From the IMG/VR virus record IMGVR_UViG_3300031853_000005, positions 53,469 through 117,468 of that record: DNA of 64,000 bases; one strand, given 5' to 3'. Below the pieces are notes generated by a model, which searched no databases, was not told the origin of the DNA, and was given only the letters and a program-made list of their open reading frames with translations. The first letter of the stretch is position 1; each line of letters starts with the position of its first letter. The position numbers were made by a program, and so were the translations under genes. The DNA is from a virus (Duplodnaviria > Heunggongvirae > Uroviricota > Caudoviricetes). Below, piece after piece: positions 19,847-60,963 of this stretch.

Positions 19847-19878
19847 AGCACCATCAGATGAAAGGGGAGGTCAAAGAT

Positions 19879-20838
19879 ATGACATACGAAACGAATGGTA
19901 ATGTGGTTCGTCTGTTCCATGAGAACCAGGTTGAGCATATTGGTGCGGAAGTGATCGAGCTTCCGACTGAGAAGCGTGAGCCTCGCGGCAAGAAGCGTGG
20001 TCAGAAGTCTGAAGTGTTTGCCTATGATCCTGCGGACATGGCAAAAGTCATTGCGTTCTTCGCAGAGAAGAACATGTGGATTCATTATCTTCTGTTCACC
20101 ATCCAGGTGAATTCCGCTCGTCGTGTCGGAGACCTCATCGGTTACGTCAATAAGGACACCGGCAAGAAGGTTGATGGTCTGCGATGGGAAGACTTCATCG
20201 ATCCGAAAACTGCCAGGGTGCGTAGCGAGATCAAGTCTTTTGCCGAGCAGAAGACCGGCAAGCTGGCAAGTCCGATGATCAATTCCGCGATGATCGCCGC
20301 AATCAATCTCTACTGTGAGAAAACGCACTGCCATCCGTCAGACAATGAATACAAGAATCCTGTGTTCATGCAGCTCTGCGGTACGCATCGTGGCAAGGTT
20401 CTGTCCTACAGCGGTGCGATGTATGCCCTGAAGATGGCGGCGAAGGAATGCGGTATCGAGTATAACGTCGGTACGCATAGCGCACGTAAGACCTTTGGTG
20501 CTACCACGAAGATGCTTCATCCTGGCGATGCCAATGTTATGGAGGCTCTTCAGAGCATCTACAATCACAGCAGTACCAGCATCACGAACAGATACATTGG
20601 TCTTGAGAAGAAGCAGACCGATGGTTACGCAAACGACATGGGAGAATTCTTCCAGGAGTATGTCGTTGAGGGGAAAGAAATCCCCCTTGAGCTGGGCAGT
20701 CCTGTCCTATCTGTTGACACCGAGAAGCTGTTCGACCTGATCGGTGCTGCGTTCCAGGCTGGCAAGAACAGCGACGGCACGAACGATGCTGCGCTGATGA
20801 TGAACCTGATGAAGCAGGTTGAAAAGATCAGAAGGTGA
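19879..20838 (+). CDS. tyrosine recombinase (phage integrase family), second copy in window
   Basis: Arg box NSARRVGDL, HSARKTF (HxxR), HSS...TNRYIG catalytic Tyr; GGGAGG RBS + ATG 19879. Confidence 0.65.
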   Translation: MTYETNGNVVRLFHENQVEHIGAEVIELPTEKREPRGKKRGQKSEVFAYDPADMAKVIAFFAEKNMWIHYLLFTIQVNSARRVGDLIGYVNKDTGKKVDGLRWEDFIDPKTARVRSEIKSFAEQKTGKLASPMINSAMIAAINLYCEKTHCHPSDNEYKNPVFMQLCGTHRGKVLSYSGAMYALKMAAKECGIEYNVGTHSARKTFGATTKMLHPGDANVMEALQSIYNHSSTSITNRYIGLEKKQTDGYANDMGEFFQEYVVEGKEIPLELGSPVLSVDTEKLFDLIGAAFQAGKNSDGTNDAALMMNLMKQVEKIRR

Positions 20839-21562: not shown

Positions 21563-22612
21563 ATGACCAATACCAGAGAAATTATAGAAGAATATTGCGA
21601 ACAGAAATTTGCCAATGATGCCACGCGGAAACCGAAGATCATGGCATCAATGTCGAGAGATGATCTGTTCGAAATGGAAGAGCGTCTTGGTAAAAGCTTT
21701 TTCGAATTTACATCGGATGAGATGGAAGATTATTTTATCAACCTGTCAACCGAGAAAACGTATAAAGGCAGAAACAAACCGATCTCTGCGACATATATGA
21801 ATCAGTTGATCTCGTATTATCGCGATATGATTCAGTGGCATATGAAGCAGACTGGGATCTATCATGAGAATGTTCTGTTTGATAAGCGTTTTAAGTTTTC
21901 TCTCAGCGCAAGCAGGAAAGATGAGACTCCAATTGTAACCAAAGAAACCCTGGAACGTGTCTGCCTTTCTCTTGATGAAATGTTTGATTCGGTTGAAGCC
22001 GATTTATATAAGCTGCTGTATTGGTTGTGTTATTCAGGATGTTTCGACTACAATGATCTTCTGACATTCAAAGATAAAGACATCGATATGGATGCCAGGA
22101 CGATCAAGATTGGCAATAGAAAAATTCATCTGAAAGATGAGTGCTTCGAACTTCTAAAACATCATCATGATGAAAACATGTATCAGAATTATCGCTTTAC
22201 CAGCATCATGGTTCCGTATCATGGCAGCTTTATCTGGATTCCGTTCTGGGTAAGCGCGGAAGATAAAGACAAAAGCGATATTGAACTGTTTGAGAAGTAC
22301 CAGGAATTGAATAACGAGAGATCAATGAACCGTGTCGCGAATCTTCTGAGTCGAAAGATGGCGCAGTTCAGAAAAGAGAAAAATATCATGATCTCTTTTG
22401 ATGTTCTTTACTATCGCGGAATCTATGACTATATGCTTCAGAAGATTGGATATGATAAGACTGTGGAACTGATCAGATCAAAAGGTAACAGAGGCAACAC
22501 AGAGGATTTGGCTGAGTTAACCAAGATTCTGAAAGAATATGGCGCGAGATGTGAAATCAAGAATGACATTTATCGCACGAAATACAGCATTGATTCTAAC
22601 TTTATCAGGTGA
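21563..22612 (+). CDS. hypothetical protein (349 aa) with weak integrase-N-terminal-like segments
   Basis: ORF; no RHRY tetrad recognisable. Confidence 0.55.
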   Translation: MTNTREIIEEYCEQKFANDATRKPKIMASMSRDDLFEMEERLGKSFFEFTSDEMEDYFINLSTEKTYKGRNKPISATYMNQLISYYRDMIQWHMKQTGIYHENVLFDKRFKFSLSASRKDETPIVTKETLERVCLSLDEMFDSVEADLYKLLYWLCYSGCFDYNDLLTFKDKDIDMDARTIKIGNRKIHLKDECFELLKHHHDENMYQNYRFTSIMVPYHGSFIWIPFWVSAEDKDKSDIELFEKYQELNNERSMNRVANLLSRKMAQFRKEKNIMISFDVLYYRGIYDYMLQKIGYDKTVELIRSKGNRGNTEDLAELTKILKEYGARCEIKNDIYRTKYSIDSNFIR

Positions 22613-23400: not shown

Positions 23401-23429
23401 TTGACAATGAAAAAGATGTGTGGTATAAT
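23401..23429 (+). promoter_or_regulatory. sigma-70 promoter TTGACA-17-TATAAT with TGn extended -10
   Basis: cagaaaataactaTTGACAatgaaaaagatgtgtggTATAATctc. Confidence 0.65.
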
Positions 23430-23827: not shown

Positions 23828-23904
23828 GCTGGTGTAGCTCAATTTGGCAGAGCGCGGCACTTGTAACGCCGATGTTGTGAGTTCGATTCTCACCACCAGC
23901 TCCA
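23828..23904 (+). tRNA. tRNA-Thr (anticodon TGT), CCA encoded
   Basis: Manual fold: acceptor GCTGGTG/CACCAGC, D arm GCTC..GAGC, anticodon loop CTTGTAA, T arm GTGAG-TTCGATT-CTCAC. Confidence 0.7.
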
Positions 23905-24505: not shown

Positions 24506-24581
24506 GGGCTGTTAGCTCAATCGGTTAGAGCCTGTGACTTATAATCGCAAGACCAGCGTTCGAATCGCTGACAGCCTACCA
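24506..24581 (+). tRNA. tRNA-Ile-like (anticodon TAT)
   Basis: Manual fold: acceptor GGGCTGT/ACAGCCT (G-U at 1:72), anticodon loop CTTATAA, T arm CAGCG-TTCGAAT-CGCTG, CCA encoded. Confidence 0.6.
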
Positions 24582-24584
24582 TAT

Positions 24585-24661
24585 GCTTCCGTGTCGCAAT
24601 CGGTAGACGGTGCTGGCTCAAACCCAGTTGTTTCACAGTTCGAATCTGTGCGGAAGCACCA
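24585..24661 (+). tRNA. class-I (short variable arm) tRNA with anticodon CAA (Leu codon UUG), A73 discriminator
   Basis: acceptor GCTTCCG/CGGAAGC, anticodon stem GCTGG/CCAGT loop CTCAAAC, 5-nt variable loop, T arm CACAG-TTCGAAT-CTGTG, CCA. Confidence 0.6.
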
Positions 24662-24782
24662 ATAGCACGTAAAGGCTGATAAAGAACGAGATACAGATAT
24701 GAAGAATATCCGAGGTCGAAAAACTACTGGCTGGATGATATCGTTCCAGCGCGTCCGAGATCGTTTAGTGGACGCATTCATA

Positions 24783-24859
24783 TATCCCAGTGGTGCAACT
24801 GGTAGACACAACAGATTTAAGCTCTGCGGTCTGAGAGTTCGAATCTCTCCTGGGATACC
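24783..24859 (+). tRNA. class-I tRNA with anticodon TAA (Leu codon UUA), G37, A73
   Basis: acceptor ATCCCAG/CTGGGAT, anticodon stem CAGA/TCTG loop TTTAAGC, 5-nt variable loop, T arm GAGAG-TTCGAAT-CTCTC, CCA. Confidence 0.6.
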
Positions 24860-25176
24860 AACCGTTCTTAGGGAAGCGCACATAGTACCGAAAGAACCGT
24901 GAGGATGGCAAAGCATGTGACTCACTGTCTCACGTAAATAAAGATGAGAATAATGCTAACTCTGGCACATTTTCCCACTTTACACGCTTATCTGAATTGA
25001 GAGATTAGGGGCAAAAAGTGGCGCTGGGTAGGAGGTTGAGTGCGCACCGTCCTACCCATGCGAGAAAGTAAAAATCATGGGGCGTTAGTGTAAAGAACAC
25101 ACGCAGAAAGCAAGGGCTGCGAAATGTGGGCGCGATACCTACACGCTCCACCAAATAAAATATAGGATTAATTACA
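24860..25176 (+). ncRNA. ORF-free structured spacer (8-bp GGGTAGGA/TCCTACCC hairpin and others) downstream of tRNA cluster
   Basis: No ORF; local GC-rich hairpins. Confidence 0.2.
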
Positions 25177-26199
25177 ATGCTGATAGGATTGATTGACGTA
25201 GACGGTCATCACTTCCCGAACCTGTGCCTGATGAAACTGTCGGCGTATCACAAACAGCTTGGAGATGATGTCGAGTGGTATTCAGAAGACAGAGAGATGT
25301 ACGACATTGTGTATATGTCAAAGGTCTTCAATGAAGAATACTCACCAGACATTCCGGAACCAGGCAACACAAGAAAAGTGATCAAAGGCGGGACTGGGTA
25401 TGCCATAAAACTGGAAGGCGATAGGGAAGTATATCACAAGGAGTTAGACCCCCCCCTACAACCTGAGATTGAACACATCTATCCTGATTACAGCTTATAT
25501 CCTGAGTATACTGGATACGGATTGCCGCTGAAGAAACAAACAGCATACGGATTCTTGACACGAGGATGTCCAAGAGGCTGCGGATTCTGTCACGTAGCCC
25601 CAAAGGAGGGAAGATGCAGTCAAAAAGTTGCTGATCTCTCGGAATTCTGGAACGGGCAAGGTAATATTTGTCTCTCTGATCCGAACATTCTGGCTTGCAA
25701 AGATGCTCCTGACTTGCTTCGGCAGTTGGTTGAATCCGGTGCAAAAGTTGAACTGAATCAGGGGATTGATGCCAGACTTATTACTCCTGAGAAAGCTGAT
25801 CTCCTGGCTCACATGAATCTCAAGATGCCGCACTTCGCGATGGACTCCATGCAAGCGATGGAACCGGTCAAGCGAGGACTGAAGCTGTATGTCGAAGCGT
25901 GTAAGAGAGTCAAAGGTAAATGGAACTGGCGAAATGCCAAGGTGTTCTGCCTGACAAACTTCGATACCACACACGAAGAAGACATGATGAGAATCAAGGC
26001 AATTCAGGAATGCGAGTGCTGGCCTTATGTGATGATCTACAACAAGATGACCGCGCCGCAAGTGACCAGAAGATTGCAGAGATGGACAAATGCTCCTGCC
26101 GCATACGCCAGAACGCAGGACTTTGACGAGTATCAGAGATTTACATATAAGAAACCGCCGAAAGAAATCGGGAATCAGAGACGGTTTAATGTGGCGTAA
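25177..26199 (+). CDS. radical SAM enzyme with N-terminal B12-binding-like region
   Basis: CPRGCGFC (CxxxCxxC) cluster motif; N-terminal DVDGHHFPNL. Confidence 0.6.
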   Translation: MLIGLIDVDGHHFPNLCLMKLSAYHKQLGDDVEWYSEDREMYDIVYMSKVFNEEYSPDIPEPGNTRKVIKGGTGYAIKLEGDREVYHKELDPPLQPEIEHIYPDYSLYPEYTGYGLPLKKQTAYGFLTRGCPRGCGFCHVAPKEGRCSQKVADLSEFWNGQGNICLSDPNILACKDAPDLLRQLVESGAKVELNQGIDARLITPEKADLLAHMNLKMPHFAMDSMQAMEPVKRGLKLYVEACKRVKGKWNWRNAKVFCLTNFDTTHEEDMMRIKAIQECECWPYVMIYNKMTAPQVTRRLQRWTNAPAAYARTQDFDEYQRFTYKKPPKEIGNQRRFNVA

Positions 26200-26219: not shown

Positions 26220-27005
26220 ATGGATAAGACATCAATAGGGGATCGGATGAAGGGATATGAAAACATCTCCCGAATCTATCTTCCGCGCCGGATTCCTGTG
26301 ATCATCCGCCTGGATGGTAAAGCATTCCACTCGTTCACAAGATGTTTTTGTAAACCGTTTGATAACGTTCTGATGAAAGCTATGCAGAACACAATGAAAA
26401 GACTGTGCGAAGGAATCCAAGGCTGTGTGTTTGGATATACGCAATCAGATGAAATCACTTTGATCTTGACGGATTACGCAACGATCAATACGGACGCCTG
26501 GTTTGGATATAATGTTCAAAAGATGGCGAGTGTTGCGGCATCTATGGCAACAGTATATTTTAATAACTCATGGCTTTTAGAGTGCAACCGTTTGCCTGAG
26601 AGTAACGACCGCGAATTTTATTTTGAGCAGCAAGGCAAAGCAATGTTTGACGCACGTTGCTTCTCCATCCCGAAGGATGAAGTCTGCAACTGCCTGATCT
26701 GGCGGCAACAGGACGCAACCAGAAATAGTGTTCAGGCTGTCGGTCAAGCACACTTCAGTCAGAAAGAACTGAATGGTAAATCCTGCAATGAGATCCAGGA
26801 TATGCTCTTCACCGAGAAGAACATCAACTGGGGAGATTTGCCTACAGACTGCAAGCGTGGTGCTGCCTGTTATAAATCCGATGAAGAAGCAAACTTCTTC
26901 TTTAGAAATGGAGAACAGACAATATACAAACGCGCTGGATGGGTGATTGACACAGAAATTCCGATCTTCACCAGCGACAGAAATTATATCGAACGCTGGC
27001 TGTAA
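26220..27005 (+). CDS. Thg1-like protein (tRNA-His guanylyltransferase / 3'-5' polymerase family)
   Basis: RLDGKAFHSF and GYTQSDEITL match Thg1 RLDGRNFHRF / GQSDEYSF; LIWRQQDATRNS cf. LSWRQADCHINN. Confidence 0.7.
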   Translation: MDKTSIGDRMKGYENISRIYLPRRIPVIIRLDGKAFHSFTRCFCKPFDNVLMKAMQNTMKRLCEGIQGCVFGYTQSDEITLILTDYATINTDAWFGYNVQKMASVAASMATVYFNNSWLLECNRLPESNDREFYFEQQGKAMFDARCFSIPKDEVCNCLIWRQQDATRNSVQAVGQAHFSQKELNGKSCNEIQDMLFTEKNINWGDLPTDCKRGAACYKSDEEANFFFRNGEQTIYKRAGWVIDTEIPIFTSDRNYIERWL

Positions 27006-27011
27006 CTTCAG

Positions 27012-27371
27012 ATGGATGAATCTTTCAGAGTAATCATCGCCGGTTCTCGCGGATTCTCAGACTACGATCTGCTGTGTGAGAAATGCGATAAACTCTTTTC
27101 CATGCGAAAGCCTACTGCGATTGTCTGCGGGGAAGCCAAAGGTGCTGATCTGCTTGGCAAACGATATGCAAAAGAACATGGGATTCCTGTGTGGTCGTTT
27201 CCTGCAAAGTGGGATCAATACGGCAAAGCTGCCGGTATGATGCGGAACAAGCAGATGCTTGCCTTTGCTGATGCTCTGGTTGCATTCTGGGACGGAGAAT
27301 CGCGTGGTACTGAGAACATGTTGGATATCGCCGCAAATAAAGGAATCCCAGTCAGAGTAATTTGTTATTAA
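27012..27371 (+). CDS. DUF2493/SLOG-family Rossmann-like protein
   Basis: VIIAGSRGFSDYDLL...IVCGEAKGADLLGKRYA...FWDGESRGT pattern. Confidence 0.55.
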   Translation: MDESFRVIIAGSRGFSDYDLLCEKCDKLFSMRKPTAIVCGEAKGADLLGKRYAKEHGIPVWSFPAKWDQYGKAAGMMRNKQMLAFADALVAFWDGESRGTENMLDIAANKGIPVRVICY

Positions 27372-32061: not shown

Positions 32062-32283
32062 ATGTTATGCAGTCGTTGCGGAGAAGAAATGCATCACTTT
32101 ATCGGAGCAGATGGAAAACGGTTAACTGAATTTCTGCGTTGTCCGAAGTGCTGGCTTGAAACAAAGCGGATGCGCTTTCATTTTGAGCCAGAAAGTACAA
32201 TAGAAAATAACCATAAAAAGGATGTGAAGAAAGTTGCTGGTAAACGGCGAAAGAGCACTGGCGTATGTCGTAAGCATCGATGA
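32062..32283 (+). CDS. zinc-ribbon protein (73 aa)
   Basis: CSRCG..(n)..CPKC. Confidence 0.45.
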   Translation: MLCSRCGEEMHHFIGADGKRLTEFLRCPKCWLETKRMRFHFEPESTIENNHKKDVKKVAGKRRKSTGVCRKHR

Positions 32284-33415
32284 GATCCAGCCGCTTGAAG
32301 GCTATGATCGCGTTGAATATGCGAGAACCAATGGCTGGTGGTGTATCATCGGCAAGGCTGATGGTATGAAGGTTGGGGATAAAGCAGTCTACTTTGAAGT
32401 GGACAGCAAAGTTCCTTCAACAGATAAGAGATTTGAGTTCCTTGAAAAGCGAAACTACAAGATCAAGACTCAGAAGATGTGCAAGGTATACAGCCAGGGA
32501 CTTCTGATGCCGCTGTCTGTATTTCCTGAACTTGGTGATGCGAAAGTGGGAACTGACGTAACCAAGAAGCTCAACATTACATACGCAGATCCAGAAGACA
32601 ATCAGCGCAAGGGCGGCGGTGATCCGAACGCTAAGTATAAATCAATGGCTGCGAGACATCAGAAGCTTTTCAAGTCAAAGCCTATTCGTTGGATGATGCG
32701 TCGCAAATGGGGCAAGAAACTGATGTTCTTGTTTTTCGGCAGAAAGAAAGATAAGCCGAAAGGATTTCCGTCTTTCGTTACGAAGACTGACGAAGAGCGT
32801 GTAGAGAACCAGCCGTGGAGAGTCGGAGACGGCAAGACCTATCTGGCAACCGAGAAGCTTGACGGTACGTCATGCACTTATGCTCTGAGGAGAATTCCTA
32901 AGAAGGCATTTCATAAAGCTGACTATGAGTTCTATGTTTGTTCCCGTAATGTCCGGCAGAAGGACGAAGACCAGAAGTGCTATCATGATCACAATATCTA
33001 CTGGGATCTCGCGTTCAAGTATGATATTGAAAAGCATCTGCGAGAGTTCCTGATCTGGCATCAGTCGTATGACTGGGTATGCATTCAGGGCGAGGGAGTC
33101 GGTTCTGTTCAGGGTAATCCTCTAAAGCTGAAAGAAGATGATCTGTACGTCTTCAACTTCATCGATTCGGTCAACGGGAGGTATCCTTCCGATCTTGGAA
33201 AGAAGACGATTGAAGAGTGGGGAATGAAGTGGGTTCCGATCCTCGGCGAAGTCACGCTGCCGGATACGATGGAAGCTCTGAAGGAAACCGCTGATGGCAA
33301 GTCTGTAGTGAATCCTGCGGTTGACAGAGAGGGTATCGTCTACAGATCCCTTGATGGTAAAGACTCATTCAAGAATGTTTCAAGAAAGTATCTTCTGAAA
33401 CATCAGAACGCTTAA
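32234..33415 (+). CDS. ATP-dependent RNA ligase (nucleotidyltransferase motifs I, IV, V)
   Basis: KLDGTS (motif I lysine), DREGIVYRS (EGxV), FKNVSRKYLLK; TTG start in track. Confidence 0.65.
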   Translation: MLVNGERALAYVVSIDEIQPLEGYDRVEYARTNGWWCIIGKADGMKVGDKAVYFEVDSKVPSTDKRFEFLEKRNYKIKTQKMCKVYSQGLLMPLSVFPELGDAKVGTDVTKKLNITYADPEDNQRKGGGDPNAKYKSMAARHQKLFKSKPIRWMMRRKWGKKLMFLFFGRKKDKPKGFPSFVTKTDEERVENQPWRVGDGKTYLATEKLDGTSCTYALRRIPKKAFHKADYEFYVCSRNVRQKDEDQKCYHDHNIYWDLAFKYDIEKHLREFLIWHQSYDWVCIQGEGVGSVQGNPLKLKEDDLYVFNFIDSVNGRYPSDLGKKTIEEWGMKWVPILGEVTLPDTMEALKETADGKSVVNPAVDREGIVYRSLDGKDSFKNVSRKYLLKHQNA

Positions 33416-33433: not shown

Positions 33434-34441
33434 ATGAAACCTAAATTTTACATGCTGGTCGGTCTTCCTGGAAGTGGTAAGTCTCAGATTGCGGAAGAAT
33501 ATCGGCAACATTATGTTTGCGTACACTCTTCTGATGCGATCCGTAAGGAGCTTTACGGTGACGAGACTGATCAGAAACATAACGCAGAAGTCTTTGCTGA
33601 ACTTCACAAGAGAATCAAGAGATGTCTTAGCGACGGCTTTGATACCATGTACGATGCCTGCAATATCAGCAAGAAGCGCAGAGCGGCGTTTCTGAAAGAG
33701 CTGAAGAACATTGACTGCGAGAAGATCTGCCTCTGTGTGATGACTCCGTATGAGATCTGCTTGGAACGCAACAAGGCAAGAGATAGATCCATTCCGGAAC
33801 ACGCAATCAAGAAAATGTATCTCAATTGGTGTCCGCCTGATGTTGCTGAAGGATTCGATAGCGTGAAACTTCTGTTCCCGTTTGAGATTGAGAAGTCGTT
33901 TGAGAAATATGATCTCGATAATCTCTTCCGCAAAGGAACGGAGTTCATGAAGTTTGACCAGAAGAACAGGCATCATTCTCTGACGGTTGGCGAACACTGC
34001 TGGGCTGCTGCAAATTTTGTGTCCGATCTGATAAATAAGTATCATGACGTGTCGATAATAAAATTTAGAGAAGATGTTTTGGATAATCTGTGTCTTGTCG
34101 AGGATGCCGCTTGGCTTCATGATATAGGCAAACCGTTCACTGCTTCTTACTACAATGGGCGCGGTGAAAAGACGGACGAATTACACTATTATCAGCATCA
34201 TTGTGTTGGCGCGTATGACAGTATCTTCTATCTTAGAAACAATACTCCTGCGCGTGATCTGGATGATGAGTATGAAAAGTCGAGATGGCTTGCAATTTCC
34301 AACCTGATTTACTGGCACATGCATCCATTTACTGCCTGGAAGCAATCTTATAAAGCGATGAACCGTGACAGAAAGCTGATGTCGGAACGGACATTCAGGA
34401 ACGTTCTGCTTCTTTATGAAGCTGATAGGTCTTCGCACTGA
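33434..34441 (+). CDS. polynucleotide kinase (P-loop) fused to HD phosphohydrolase domain (Pnkp-like RNA/DNA end-healing enzyme)
   Basis: LVGLPGSGKS Walker A; C-terminal H..HD signature HSLTVGEHCW...LHDIGKP. Confidence 0.7.
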   Translation: MKPKFYMLVGLPGSGKSQIAEEYRQHYVCVHSSDAIRKELYGDETDQKHNAEVFAELHKRIKRCLSDGFDTMYDACNISKKRRAAFLKELKNIDCEKICLCVMTPYEICLERNKARDRSIPEHAIKKMYLNWCPPDVAEGFDSVKLLFPFEIEKSFEKYDLDNLFRKGTEFMKFDQKNRHHSLTVGEHCWAAANFVSDLINKYHDVSIIKFREDVLDNLCLVEDAAWLHDIGKPFTASYYNGRGEKTDELHYYQHHCVGAYDSIFYLRNNTPARDLDDEYEKSRWLAISNLIYWHMHPFTAWKQSYKAMNRDRKLMSERTFRNVLLLYEADRSSH

Positions 34442-53157: not shown

Positions 53158-53489
53158 AAGGGAAGTGCGCTGTCTGCGGTAAGGAAGGAGAAGTCTTCGT
53201 AGCTTGTTCAGCATGCGGAGCAATCTCCTTCGCGTACTGCGAGGATTGTTTGAATACAGGAGCAGAACCTTATGGTGCTCTTGTTGAATATATCTCATGT
53301 GCTGGCGATTCTCCGGAAGACATCAATGACACATATCTCAAAATCATTCGCGACACACTGTCCAGGCTGAATATTACAGAAGAACAGTTCTGGAAAGATG
53401 TCAAACAGTCAATCATTGATGAGAATGAATATTGGAAGGAACTTGCCGCACAAAATGATTCTAAAACAACGGAAGGTTTGCCGTTTTAA
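53154..53489 (+). CDS. zinc-finger protein (111 aa)
   Basis: CAVCG..CSACG..C..C. Confidence 0.5.
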   Translation: MKGKCAVCGKEGEVFVACSACGAISFAYCEDCLNTGAEPYGALVEYISCAGDSPEDINDTYLKIIRDTLSRLNITEEQFWKDVKQSIIDENEYWKELAAQNDSKTTEGLPF

Positions 53490-59655: not shown

Positions 59656-59781
59656 CTGAACAAAATTTCGTCGTTCATAATTTGTCTATTGCCTTATTTA
59701 TGAATATATTGTAAACTCATTTCACTAAGCTTCCCCCACATTAGTGTGTAAAATTGAGTGTACTACATGAAAGGAGGCAAT

Positions 59782-60963
59782 ATGTCAAAAGAAAATAGGC
59801 GAGAGAAAGGAACTGGGGGAATCACCCAGCGAAAAGACGGTCTCTATCAAGGTTGTTTTGATGCAGGAGTAAAACCAGACGGCAAGCGCGATGTTAAATA
59901 CGTATATGCTAAAACCGAGCCAGAATGCAAACGCAAACTGAATGCGCTGATTAAAGAAATCCATAAAACAGAATACGTTTATGTACAGAAAGAATCCGTA
60001 GAATCATTTTTGACAACGTGGCTCACTGCCGTAAAAGTTTTAGATCTTAAACCAAAAAGCTATGATCGCCTGGAACAGACAATTAACAATCAGGTGATCC
60101 CATACATCGGCGATAAGCAGATTCATGACCTTAAAAGCGATGAAATACAAGAGATGATATCAAAACTCGTTGCCGAAGGTAAATCATACTCTTCTATCAA
60201 AAAAGCTTATGAGGCTTTGAATGCAGCATTCAAGTGGGGATTGATTTGCGATCCGCCGAAAATCAAAAAGAATCCAGCGGCAAACATTAAACTCCCAAAT
60301 AAAAAATTATTTACCCAGAAGCAAATCCCATTCTACACAGAAAAAGAAGCTAAGATCCTGATCGCCCAGGCAACATCAAGGAACGGCAAAGGCAACCGCA
60401 AATATCCTCTCGGAGCGTTTGTTCCACTTCTCATTAATACCGGACTCCGAATGAGTGAATTACTTGCACTTAAATGGGAAGACGATATCGACCTGGAAAA
60501 TAAAACTCTTACCGTACACAATAATGTGGTATTTGTTAGAGATCGCGAGAAAGAAAAAGGATATAAATTGTTAGAGCAGGACAGCGTAAAGACGGATGCC
60601 GGACAAGACAGAGTAATTCCGCTAAACGATGCTGCCGTTGATGCACTTAAAAATTTGCAAGAAATCTCAGGCACTAGGACTTGGGTCATGACCACTAGGA
60701 ACAATACCCAAGTCAAGCCTCGCCAGCTTGATCAGATGTTCCGCAGAATTGCAGTCGCGTCAGATCTTCCTGAAGAAAAAATCTATGGCGTTCATGCGCT
60801 GAGACACACATTCGCAACTCTGCTTCTTAAAAACAAAATTGATATTAAGACAGTCAGTAAGCTTCTCGGTCACTCCGATGTATCAATCACGTATAACACT
60901 TATATCCATGTGATTAAAGAGCAGGAGGCTGAAGCCGTAGGAAGCCTGCCAGAGCTGACGTAA
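59782..60963 (+). CDS. int: tyrosine integrase
   Basis: LRMSELLALKWED (Arg box), HALRHTFATLLL (HxxRH), LLGHSDVSITYNTYIH (catalytic Tyr); AAGGAGG RBS + ATG 59782. Confidence 0.85.
   Translation: MSKENRREKGTGGITQRKDGLYQGCFDAGVKPDGKRDVKYVYAKTEPECKRKLNALIKEIHKTEYVYVQKESVESFLTTWLTAVKVLDLKPKSYDRLEQTINNQVIPYIGDKQIHDLKSDEIQEMISKLVAEGKSYSSIKKAYEALNAAFKWGLICDPPKIKKNPAANIKLPNKKLFTQKQIPFYTEKEAKILIAQATSRNGKGNRKYPLGAFVPLLINTGLRMSELLALKWEDDIDLENKTLTVHNNVVFVRDREKEKGYKLLEQDSVKTDAGQDRVIPLNDAAVDALKNLQEISGTRTWVMTTRNNTQVKPRQLDQMFRRIAVASDLPEEKIYGVHALRHTFATLLLKNKIDIKTVSKLLGHSDVSITYNTYIHVIKEQEAEAVGSLPELT

Follow-up and report, generated by a model that had tools for sequence, protein, structure and literature searches.

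tRNA-Leu genes of the phage locus

The DNA analysed here, referred to below as the window, is a stretch of 64,000 nucleotides (nt) from a virus of the class Caudoviricetes (positions 53,469 to 117,468 of the IMG/VR record IMGVR_UViG_3300031853_000005). Its plus strand carries two tRNA genes with leucine anticodons, tRNA-Leu(CAA) at 24585..24661 and tRNA-Leu(UAA) at 24784..24860, both of class-I architecture, with a short variable loop in place of the long arm of class-II tRNA-Leu. Judged from their sequences, both are quite probably functional, leucine-accepting type-I tRNA-Leu, homologous to the class-II tRNA-Leu of bacteria minus the variable arm.

Both genes were called by ARAGORN and match the Rfam family RF00005 over the full length of the model (1-71/71), scoring 48.6 bits for Leu(CAA) and 51.8 bits for Leu(UAA) against a gathering score of 29. 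Each is 77 nt long, the encoded CCA included, and in each the parsed cloverleaf consists of an acceptor stem of 7 bp, a D stem of 3 bp with a loop of 11 nt, an anticodon stem of 5 bp with a loop of 7 nt, and a T stem of 5 bp closing the loop TTCGAAT. The D arms read UGUCGCAAUCGGUAGACGGU in Leu(CAA) and UGGUGCAACUGGUAGACACA in Leu(UAA), the D loop of the former containing the motif GGTAGAC. U8, A14, G18G19, U33, G53, T54-Psi55-C56, A58 and C61 are all present in both genes, the anticodon follows U33, and the discriminator base is A73.

The variable loop is 5 nt long, TGTTT in Leu(CAA) and GGTCT in Leu(UAA). Neither gene has the stemmed variable arm of more than 10 nt that characterises class II, and a total of 77 nt including CCA makes a hidden long arm impossible. 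Both combine a leucine anticodon and a variable loop of 4-5 nt with an otherwise complete cloverleaf, as expected of type-I tRNA-Leu. The original prediction, made from the sequence without database searches, had described the two genes as 77-nt class-I cloverleaves with 5-nt variable loops, anticodons CAA and UAA, A73 and, in one of them, G37, and this description was borne out by ARAGORN, Rfam and the parsed layout; the end of the second gene had been placed at 24859, one base short of the ARAGORN call.

The anticodon loops are CUCAAAC, with A37, in Leu(CAA) and UUUAAGC, with G37, in Leu(UAA). tRNAs reading UUR codons usually have A37, and methylation of G37 by TrmD normally follows G36. G37 after A36, within the same loop UUUAAGC, was also seen in UAA-type short tRNA-Leu of unrelated phages (loci L001:2997-3075, L006, L042 and L099).

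Cloverleaf fold and covariation

In single-sequence folding the cloverleaf is not the structure of minimum free energy (MFE) for either gene. The MFE is -23.8 kcal/mol for Leu(CAA) and -21.9 kcal/mol for Leu(UAA), as compared with -19.4 and -17.8 kcal/mol for the respective cloverleaves, a gap of about 4 kcal/mol in both, and the z-scores of the MFE, -1.36 and -0.96, are unremarkable. Such values would suit the view that the cloverleaf and its anticodons are an artefact, another fold giving different anticodons or concealing a long arm. However, the canonical tRNA-Ile gene lying next to them shows the same kind of gap, its cloverleaf (-24.0 kcal/mol) standing about 3 kcal/mol above the MFE (-27.1 kcal/mol), and because this canonical tRNA misfolds too, MFE folding is not decisive. 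The alternative MFE folds of both Leu genes are not tRNA-like and yield no other anticodon.

Comparison of homologues also speaks for the cloverleaf. Across 79 distinct short Leu tRNAs, aligned without gaps, U8, A14, A15, G18, G19, A20a, A35, the T-loop and A73 are invariant, U48 is present in at least 90%, and 98.8% of the cells are paired in the class-I cloverleaf, although these motif and pairing frequencies are inflated by the pre-selection of the sequences with ARAGORN and, in part, with a pattern containing the D-loop motif GGTAGAC. Substitutions on both sides are seen in 19 of the 20 pairs; the covariation score reaches 1.11, as against 0.24 in shuffles and 0.17-0.26 in controls with slid partners. 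With two independent tRNA finders in agreement and no room for an arm in 77 nt, the artefact is effectively refuted; the two faults against which the original prediction had itself warned, a better fold with other anticodons and an overlooked long arm, were not found.

Occurrence of short tRNA-Leu in viruses and bacteria

A pattern that only a short variable loop can satisfy (GGTAGAC, 9 nt, T, YAA, R, 15 nt, GTTCGA) matched 99 stretches in the viral contig collection. ARAGORN placed 92 of the matches within tRNAs of 74-78 nt, and 90 of these were called as Leu. A counterpart pattern with class-II spacing matched at least 120 stretches in the viral contigs, a lower bound that provides no ratio of short to long forms; the counts by locus given below are conditional ones.

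The 100 viral loci examined contain 1,366 tRNAs. The variable region is no longer than 6 nt in 154 of their 210 tRNA-Leu (5 nt in 141), and the short forms include tag, gag, cag and aag anticodons, for which the pattern did not select. In the same loci the long arm is present in all 104 tRNA-Ser and in 29 of 31 tRNA-Tyr. Among the class-II isotypes the arm is lost only in the one whose synthetase reportedly needs none, and this is the most telling result of the survey. It amounts to a natural experiment, arm-less tRNA-Leu beside armed tRNA-Ser and tRNA-Tyr, that agrees with the arm-independence of bacterial leucyl-tRNA synthetase (LeuRS) in vitro.

Only short tRNA-Leu was found in 22 of 43 tRNA-rich viral loci. 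Where short and long tRNA-Leu occur together, an anticodon is common to both kinds in only 2 of 41 loci, and this complementarity indicates that the short genes behave as members of the set of leucine isoacceptors.

Bacterial and archaeal genomes amounting to about 596 Gb yielded 104 matches to the class-I pattern, 86 of which are class-I tRNA-Leu. The bacterial class-I tRNA-Leu(YAA) genes lie mostly in dense arrays, with 10-34 tRNAs per 8 kb, carried by Cyanobacteria (some of them on plasmids), Acidobacteria and rumen Clostridia. A few lie outside arrays and are apparently native to reduced genomes (L117, L123, L138/L148 and L159/L184), the carriers including Candidatus Uzinura diaspidicola, a metagenome-assembled genome of Mycoplasmataceae and Candidatus Ancillula trichonymphae; the Mollicutes-related endosymbiont DhMRE has class-I tRNA-Leu with both CAA and UAA anticodons. 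This distribution suggests that the arm was lost independently in streamlined bacteria.

A literature search confined to open-access papers and bioRxiv found no report on arm-less tRNA-Leu in phages or arrays, a result that is not proof of absence. The original prediction regarded either a structurally unorthodox tRNA-Leu or a recoding tRNA as unusual, which holds in relation to cellular bacteria and does not hold in phage clusters and mobile arrays, where the short format is common and has been annotated in cultured phages. The format is known but little discussed, the genes of the window are further cases of it, and the idea of recoding is unsupported. The survey extends to many phage lineages a phenomenon treated as rare when it was described in Streptomyces coelicolor in 2019.

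Leucine-type features and isotype

In Escherichia coli, leucine identity resides in A73, A14 (within U8:A14), the A15:U48 Levitt pair, G18G19 and A20a, together with the elbow pairs G18:U55, G19:C56 and U54:A58 (PMC9976931, PMC6614811). It is independent of the anticodon and of the long arm, variants without the arm being still active (PMC9976931). Both genes of the window carry A15:U48, U8:A14, G18G19, A20a and A73, the full E. coli LeuRS identity set.

The likeness to class-II tRNA-Leu extends beyond these positions. The D arm of Leu(CAA) is identical to that of E. coli leuX (CAA) at 16 of 20 positions and that of Leu(UAA) to leuZ (UAA) at 17 of 20, the anticodon loops align as well, and the sole structural difference is a clean gap of 10-12 nt at the variable arm. 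Within the 100 viral loci, 99% of the 155 short tRNA-Leu and all 55 long ones have A73, and A15:U48 occurs at frequencies of 0.97 and 1.00, respectively, while other isotypes range from 0.10 to 0.78. A D stem of 3 bp and a D loop of 10-11 nt are also common to the short and the long forms.

Some short and long tRNA-Leu are nearly identical outside the variable region. The tRNA-Leu(tag) of L003 has the variable loop ATTTT and that of L070 the long arm TATCGAGAGGTGT, yet the acceptor stems, T arms and anticodon loops of the two are identical. Such pairs show that the two forms are homologues differing by an insertion or deletion of the arm. When the anticodon and the variable region are masked, the closest relative of Leu(UAA) outside the short tRNAs is the long tRNA-Leu(UAA) of L057, with a score of 38 as against 23 for the next isotype.

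The original prediction offered two readings, structurally unorthodox leucine tRNAs or tRNAs charged with a different amino acid at leucine codons. The first gains support from the leucine-type D arms and identity positions, the alignments to leuX and leuZ, and the pairs of short and long forms. Under the second, the genes would be class-I tRNAs that belong to a different isotype, Phe or Trp for example, with the anticodon mutated to YAA and another amino acid inserted at UUR codons. It can draw on the facts that nearest-neighbour searches sometimes returned 'Phe', that UUR codons neighbour the Phe codons and tRNA-Phe also has A73, and that a common short Leu(CAA) consensus shares 80-84% identity with tRNA-Trp(CCA) from cluster-L mycobacteriophages.

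These resemblances were traced to other causes. The 'Phe(aaa)' neighbours are class-I tRNA-Leu(UAA) that ARAGORN read out of register, and true phage tRNA-Phe(GAA) for the most part combines a D stem of 4 bp with a loop of 8-9 nt and lacks the D-loop motif of tRNA-Leu; an origin from tRNA-Phe was rejected. An origin from tRNA-Trp was likewise rejected, since the likeness does not extend beyond the D-loop motif and the T arm, and the tRNA-Trp of Mycobacterium phage LeBron combines G73 with a D stem of 4 bp and a loop of 8 nt. The genes of the window, with A73, a 3-bp D stem and an 11-nt loop, do not look like Trp or Phe tRNAs with altered anticodons, and the combination of this D arm with A15:U48 and A20a is specific to leucine. 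By published identity rules, moreover, PheRS and TrpRS read anticodon bases that are absent from both tRNAs. As far as the sequences tell, charging with another amino acid appears to lack support and is highly improbable, the likeness to Phe and Trp reflecting the register error and a shared T arm.

In two loci, at L013:4123 and L023:4621, a class-I tRNA-Leu(UAA) had been called 'tRNA-Phe(aaa)', with the anticodon one base off register. It is possible that calls of this kind are a recurrent mis-annotation of arm-less Leu tRNAs. For annotation, both genes of the window should be called tRNA-Leu, and not recoding devices or artefacts.

Relatives and conservation

A megablast search of INPHARED found no close relatives of the window, and distant blastn matches were at the level of tRNAs only. 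The viral locus L334 belongs to a 96%-identical relative of the window phage and carries the same four tRNAs. Leu(CAA) is identical in the two, and Leu(UAA) differs at three sites, one of which gives G27-C43 in L334 where the window has A27.C43. A wider lineage of Leu(CAA), found in L057, L098, L089, L333 and L335, shares the acceptor stem GCUUCCG, with compensatory changes in the D, anticodon and T stems; in these relatives a long, 85-nt Leu(UAA) precedes Leu(CAA) at a distance of 3 nt.

Apart from the pre-selection of the alignment mentioned above, several observations weigh against both genes being functional leucine tRNAs. Both score 12-15 Rfam bits below the neighbouring tRNA-Thr and tRNA-Ile, which reach 63-64 bits (64.2 and 63.4), and the window copy of Leu(UAA) has the mismatch A27.C43 at the top of its anticodon stem. 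Between the window and L334, the tRNAs are no better conserved than the adjacent spacers. Outside the short tRNAs Leu(CAA) has no close relative, its whole-body nearest neighbour being ambiguous (Val 22, Tyr 21, Gln 20), and its D arm is nearest to long tRNA-Leu by a small margin (12 as against 10), in a D-arm-only classification that recovered 54 of 55 long tRNA-Leu in leave-one-out trials and is weak for most isotypes, with small margins for the window genes. With respect to charging, the E. coli LeuRS, whose leucine-specific domain reportedly prefers large variable loops, failed to charge the type-I tRNA-Leu(CAA) of S. coelicolor (PMC6614811). This failure implies that tolerance of the short form depends on the host, which in the present case is only presumed to be a Firmicute.

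Several of these points would also fit the view that one or both genes are decaying, non-functional copies in a mobile tRNA cassette: the low Rfam scores, the A.C mismatch that L334 does not have, and the identity of Leu(UAA) between the window and L334, 96.1% as against 96.7% for the adjacent spacer. To these may be added the relatives that share a radical-SAM gene with the window and have no tRNAs near it, which implies that the cluster is dispensable. The comparison with L334 is nevertheless uninformative on selection of the tRNAs, because the surrounding spacers are equally conserved; a block at 23.5-24.7 kb is about 100% identical, spacers included. Against decay, no invariant tRNA position has been lost, pairing is complete in the acceptor, D and T stems and both genes encode CCA, while Leu(CAA) is unchanged in L334 and its structure is kept by compensatory changes in L057, L333 and L335. 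Many tRNAs can function despite a single A.C mismatch at 27:43. Decay is therefore improbable, and the reading of both genes as functional tRNA-Leu is preferred.

The tRNA cluster and codon usage

Two further tRNA genes on the plus strand precede the Leu genes. The first of the cluster is tRNA-Thr(UGU) at 23828..23904, and the second is tRNA-Ile(UAU) at 24506..24581, a canonical class-I tRNA that ends 3 nt before Leu(CAA); both were called by ARAGORN and have the Rfam scores given above. The UAU anticodon of tRNA-Ile is encoded in the genome and reads AUA, a codon that most bacteria read with a lysidine-modified CAU tRNA. Ile(tat) recurs beside short tRNA-Leu in the crAss-like phage cr112_1 and in Rhodococcus phage Francesca.

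A consensus scan found a sigma-70-type promoter-like site upstream of the cluster, at 23401..23429 on the plus strand (TTGACA-17 nt-TATAAT, matching 12 of 12 positions, with the extended -10 motif TG). The scan found no terminator-like site between the promoter-like site and position 25300, so the tRNA cluster may be one transcription unit. Both tRNA-Leu are probably transcribed together with tRNA-Thr(UGU) and tRNA-Ile(UAU) from this site near 23401, a putative strong promoter.

The codons read by the four tRNAs, ACA, AUA, UUG and UUA, are A-ending or rare. The expectation behind the original prediction, that in an AT-rich phage UUA and UUG would be abundant, was not borne out on either count. 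The GC content of the window is 39-47% (about 43%), and the two are minor leucine codons: UUA makes up 6.9% and UUG 12.6% of Leu codons in 87 crudely defined open reading frames (ORFs), and 5.9% and 12.2% in 36 long ORFs of the plus strand, where GC3 is 0.48. The four tRNAs would supply decoders for ACA, AUA, UUG and UUA during infection.

Genes around the cluster

Downstream of the tRNAs, and on the same strand, lies a group of genes. The first, at 25177-26199, encodes a radical-SAM protein and stands between the tRNAs and a gene for a Thg1-like protein. It is absent from L334, has 50-77% amino-acid identity to proteins of other viral contigs (L326-L331), and in the source contig at ENA is represented by two called genes of 117 and 225 aa. 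It is the sole gene shared with six viral contigs, which show no synteny, have no tRNAs nearby and thus tell nothing about the tRNAs of the window. From its sequence and distribution, the radical-SAM gene appears to behave as a mobile cassette inserted immediately after a tRNA-like element described below.

The Thg1-like protein, of the tRNA-His guanylyltransferase / 3'-5' polymerase family, is encoded at 26220..27005 on the plus strand (Pfam PF04446, E = 1.5e-31, 109 bits) and is followed by a YspA-like protein of the SLOG family (27012-27371, plus strand). Further downstream, also on the plus strand, are an RNA ligase at 32234..33415 (PHROG 968, E = 7e-64; Pfam PF09414 and PF21189) and, at 33434..34441, a P-loop kinase (AAA_33; PF13671, E = 1.8e-20) with a weak HD match that is below the cutoff (E = 0.002). 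By its domain content, the latter is a candidate polynucleotide kinase/phosphatase. The Thg1-like, ligase and kinase/HD genes near the tRNAs look like a tRNA supply-and-repair island. A Thg1-like protein is not known to be part of the classical Pnkp/Rnl1 tRNA-repair pair of T4.

Three ORFs of the plus strand are tyrosine-recombinase/integrase-like. Two of them, at 19858-20838 and 21563-22612, are directly upstream of the tRNA cluster and have weak PHROG/Pfam matches; the third, at 59758-60963, has a strong match and is located near a switch of GC skew at about 60 kb. All three could be signs of mobile cassettes or of a prophage end.

The search of the window for a phage-encoded LeuRS found only one ORF longer than 641 aa, which encodes DnaE, and no ORF of the window is therefore large enough for LeuRS. 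The replication genes are phage-like, and DnaE is about 52% identical to that of large Clostridioides/Clostridium phages, which suggests a Firmicutes host.

A structured stretch behind Leu(UAA)

Leu(UAA) is followed by a structured non-coding stretch at 24861..25153 on the plus strand, defined by its sequence, its folds and its alignment to L334, and assigned to the cluster by position and conservation. A search of this stretch against Rfam gave no match at E<=10. The block 24861-24925 is 90% conserved in L334, which also carries a compensatory change (GGGCAGGA...UCCUGCCC) in a hairpin located at about 25027-25060 (GGGUAGGA...UCCUACCC). The conserved block and the hairpin, within 24861-25078, may represent further small RNAs or processing signals.

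The remainder of the stretch, 25079-25153, is a 75-nt tRNA-shaped element on the plus strand that folds into a cloverleaf with G3:U70, A73 and an encoded CCA. Its acceptor stem is GGGGCGU/ACGCUCC, its D loop has 5 nt and lacks GG, its 'anticodon' loop has 10 nt (AAAGCAAGGG), and its T-like loop is CGCGAUA. The cloverleaf has a free energy of -24.9 kcal/mol, compared with an MFE of -26.6 kcal/mol. ARAGORN and Rfam, the latter even at E<=10, did not recognise the element, and homologues among 337 loci were found only in the window's own contig and in L334. In L334 it is 97% conserved, its flanks being 70-85% conserved, and the homology to L334 stops just past the CCA. G3:U70 together with A73 are features of AlaRS substrates by textbook rules, and by analogy the element could be a substrate of AlaRS. 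Analogues are known among the annotated tRNA-like stable RNAs within phage tRNA clusters, namely RNA1-3 of T5 and rnaC/rnaD of T4.

Possible roles of the arm-less tRNA-Leu

If both genes are functional tRNA-Leu, the host LeuRS would charge both tRNAs with leucine through A73, U8:A14, A15:U48, G18G19/A20a and the elbow formed by the D and T loops. The Thg1-like enzyme, the RNA ligase and the kinase/HD protein encoded in the same island would suggest that tRNAs are supplied and repaired under attack by the host.

The same island also speaks for considering the tRNAs mainly as decoys or spare parts, which would soak up host anticodon nucleases or toxins, or feed repair by the Thg1-like protein and the ligase, the loss of the arm serving to set them apart from the tRNA-Leu of the host. 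The rarity of UUA and UUG in the phage genes, implying a modest demand for decoding, fits this view too, and phage tRNAs have been proposed to counter tRNA-targeting defences (PMC10264068). However, the elements used by LeuRS and the ribosome (U33, the 7-nt anticodon loop, the T-loop and the encoded CCA) are kept throughout the family, and short and long tRNA-Leu complement each other in anticodon within clusters, as decoders would. No Leu-specific nuclease was identified in this analysis, and decoy and decoding roles are compatible. A mainly decoy role is thus unlikely, and the reading of the genes as leucine-accepting decoders is retained.

A more speculative and rather doubtful reading is that the arm is lost repeatedly and under selection in phage clusters and mobile arrays, as a design and not as neutral streamlining: the tRNA would thereby evade host nucleases or toxins that read the class-II arm, or be marked for phage repair enzymes, among them the adjacent Thg1-like protein and RNA ligase, while LeuRS would still charge it. 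If this were true, the short format would signal an arms race centred on tRNAs, and a limit set by the host LeuRS would account for T4 and T5 not having it. The findings raise the questions of which host LeuRS tolerate the short form, and whether the loss of the arm is an advantage against tRNA-targeting defences; given its island of Thg1-like, RNA ligase and kinase genes, the phage of the window is a reasonable system for such questions.

Comparison with known systems

The closest characterised counterpart is the type-I tRNA-Leu(CAA) of S. coelicolor, whose variable loop has 5 nt and which the only LeuRS of this bacterium leucylates (Fan et al. 2019, NAR, PMC6614811). Its charging depends on U8:A14 and on how many nucleotides the variable loop has, and almost all bacterial tRNA-Leu are of type II according to the authors (PMC6614811). 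By its published description it shares with the window's Leu(CAA) the anticodon, a variable loop of 5 nt and A73, and the same cell also contains class-II tRNA-Leu. It differs in being a chromosomal housekeeping gene, whereas those of the window are phage genes; in addition, A73 is not an identity element in S. coelicolor, and a special leucine-specific domain of LeuRS is required (PMC6614811).

Among cultured phages, Mycobacterium phage LeBron has annotated Leu-caa and Leu-tag of 75 nt each beside an 84-nt Tyr, and Rhodococcus phage Francesca has an annotated Leu-caa of 76 nt accompanied by a Leu-taa of 89 nt, tRNA-Ile(tat) and an RNA ligase. The crAss-like phage cr112_1 has annotated Leu-tag of 76 nt and Leu-taa of 79 nt, the latter being 80% identical to Leu(UAA) of the window. 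All three resemble the window in the 3-bp D stem, the large D loop, the variable loop of 4-5 nt, A73 and the location in tRNA clusters, and differ from it in belonging to other phage lineages with other hosts (Actinobacteria, Bacteroidota).

E. coli leuX and leuZ and the tRNA-Leu of phages T4 and T5 share with the genes of the window the anticodons, A73, the D arm, A15:U48, G18G19, A20a and the T-loop. They differ in their variable arm, which has 13-17 nt and brings the class-II tRNAs to 85-87 nt in total, in contrast to the 5-nt loop of the window genes. The tRNA-Leu of the E. coli phages T4 and T5 are long, with 87 and 85 nt, in keeping with the report that the short form is not used by E. 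coli LeuRS.

Animal mitochondrial tRNA-Leu(UUR) and engineered arm-less variants of E. coli tRNA-Leu are also leucine-accepting without the arm, with identity residing in A73, A14 and the elbow (PMC9976931). Unlike the tRNAs of the window, the mitochondrial tRNAs are structurally degenerate and are served by a dedicated LeuRS, while the E. coli variants are laboratory constructs. The mobile tRNA arrays described in 2021 (PMC8421152), in a paper that makes no mention of tRNA-Leu architecture, are larger than the cluster of the window phage, which has only four tRNAs; the short tRNA-Leu format is common to these arrays and to phage clusters.

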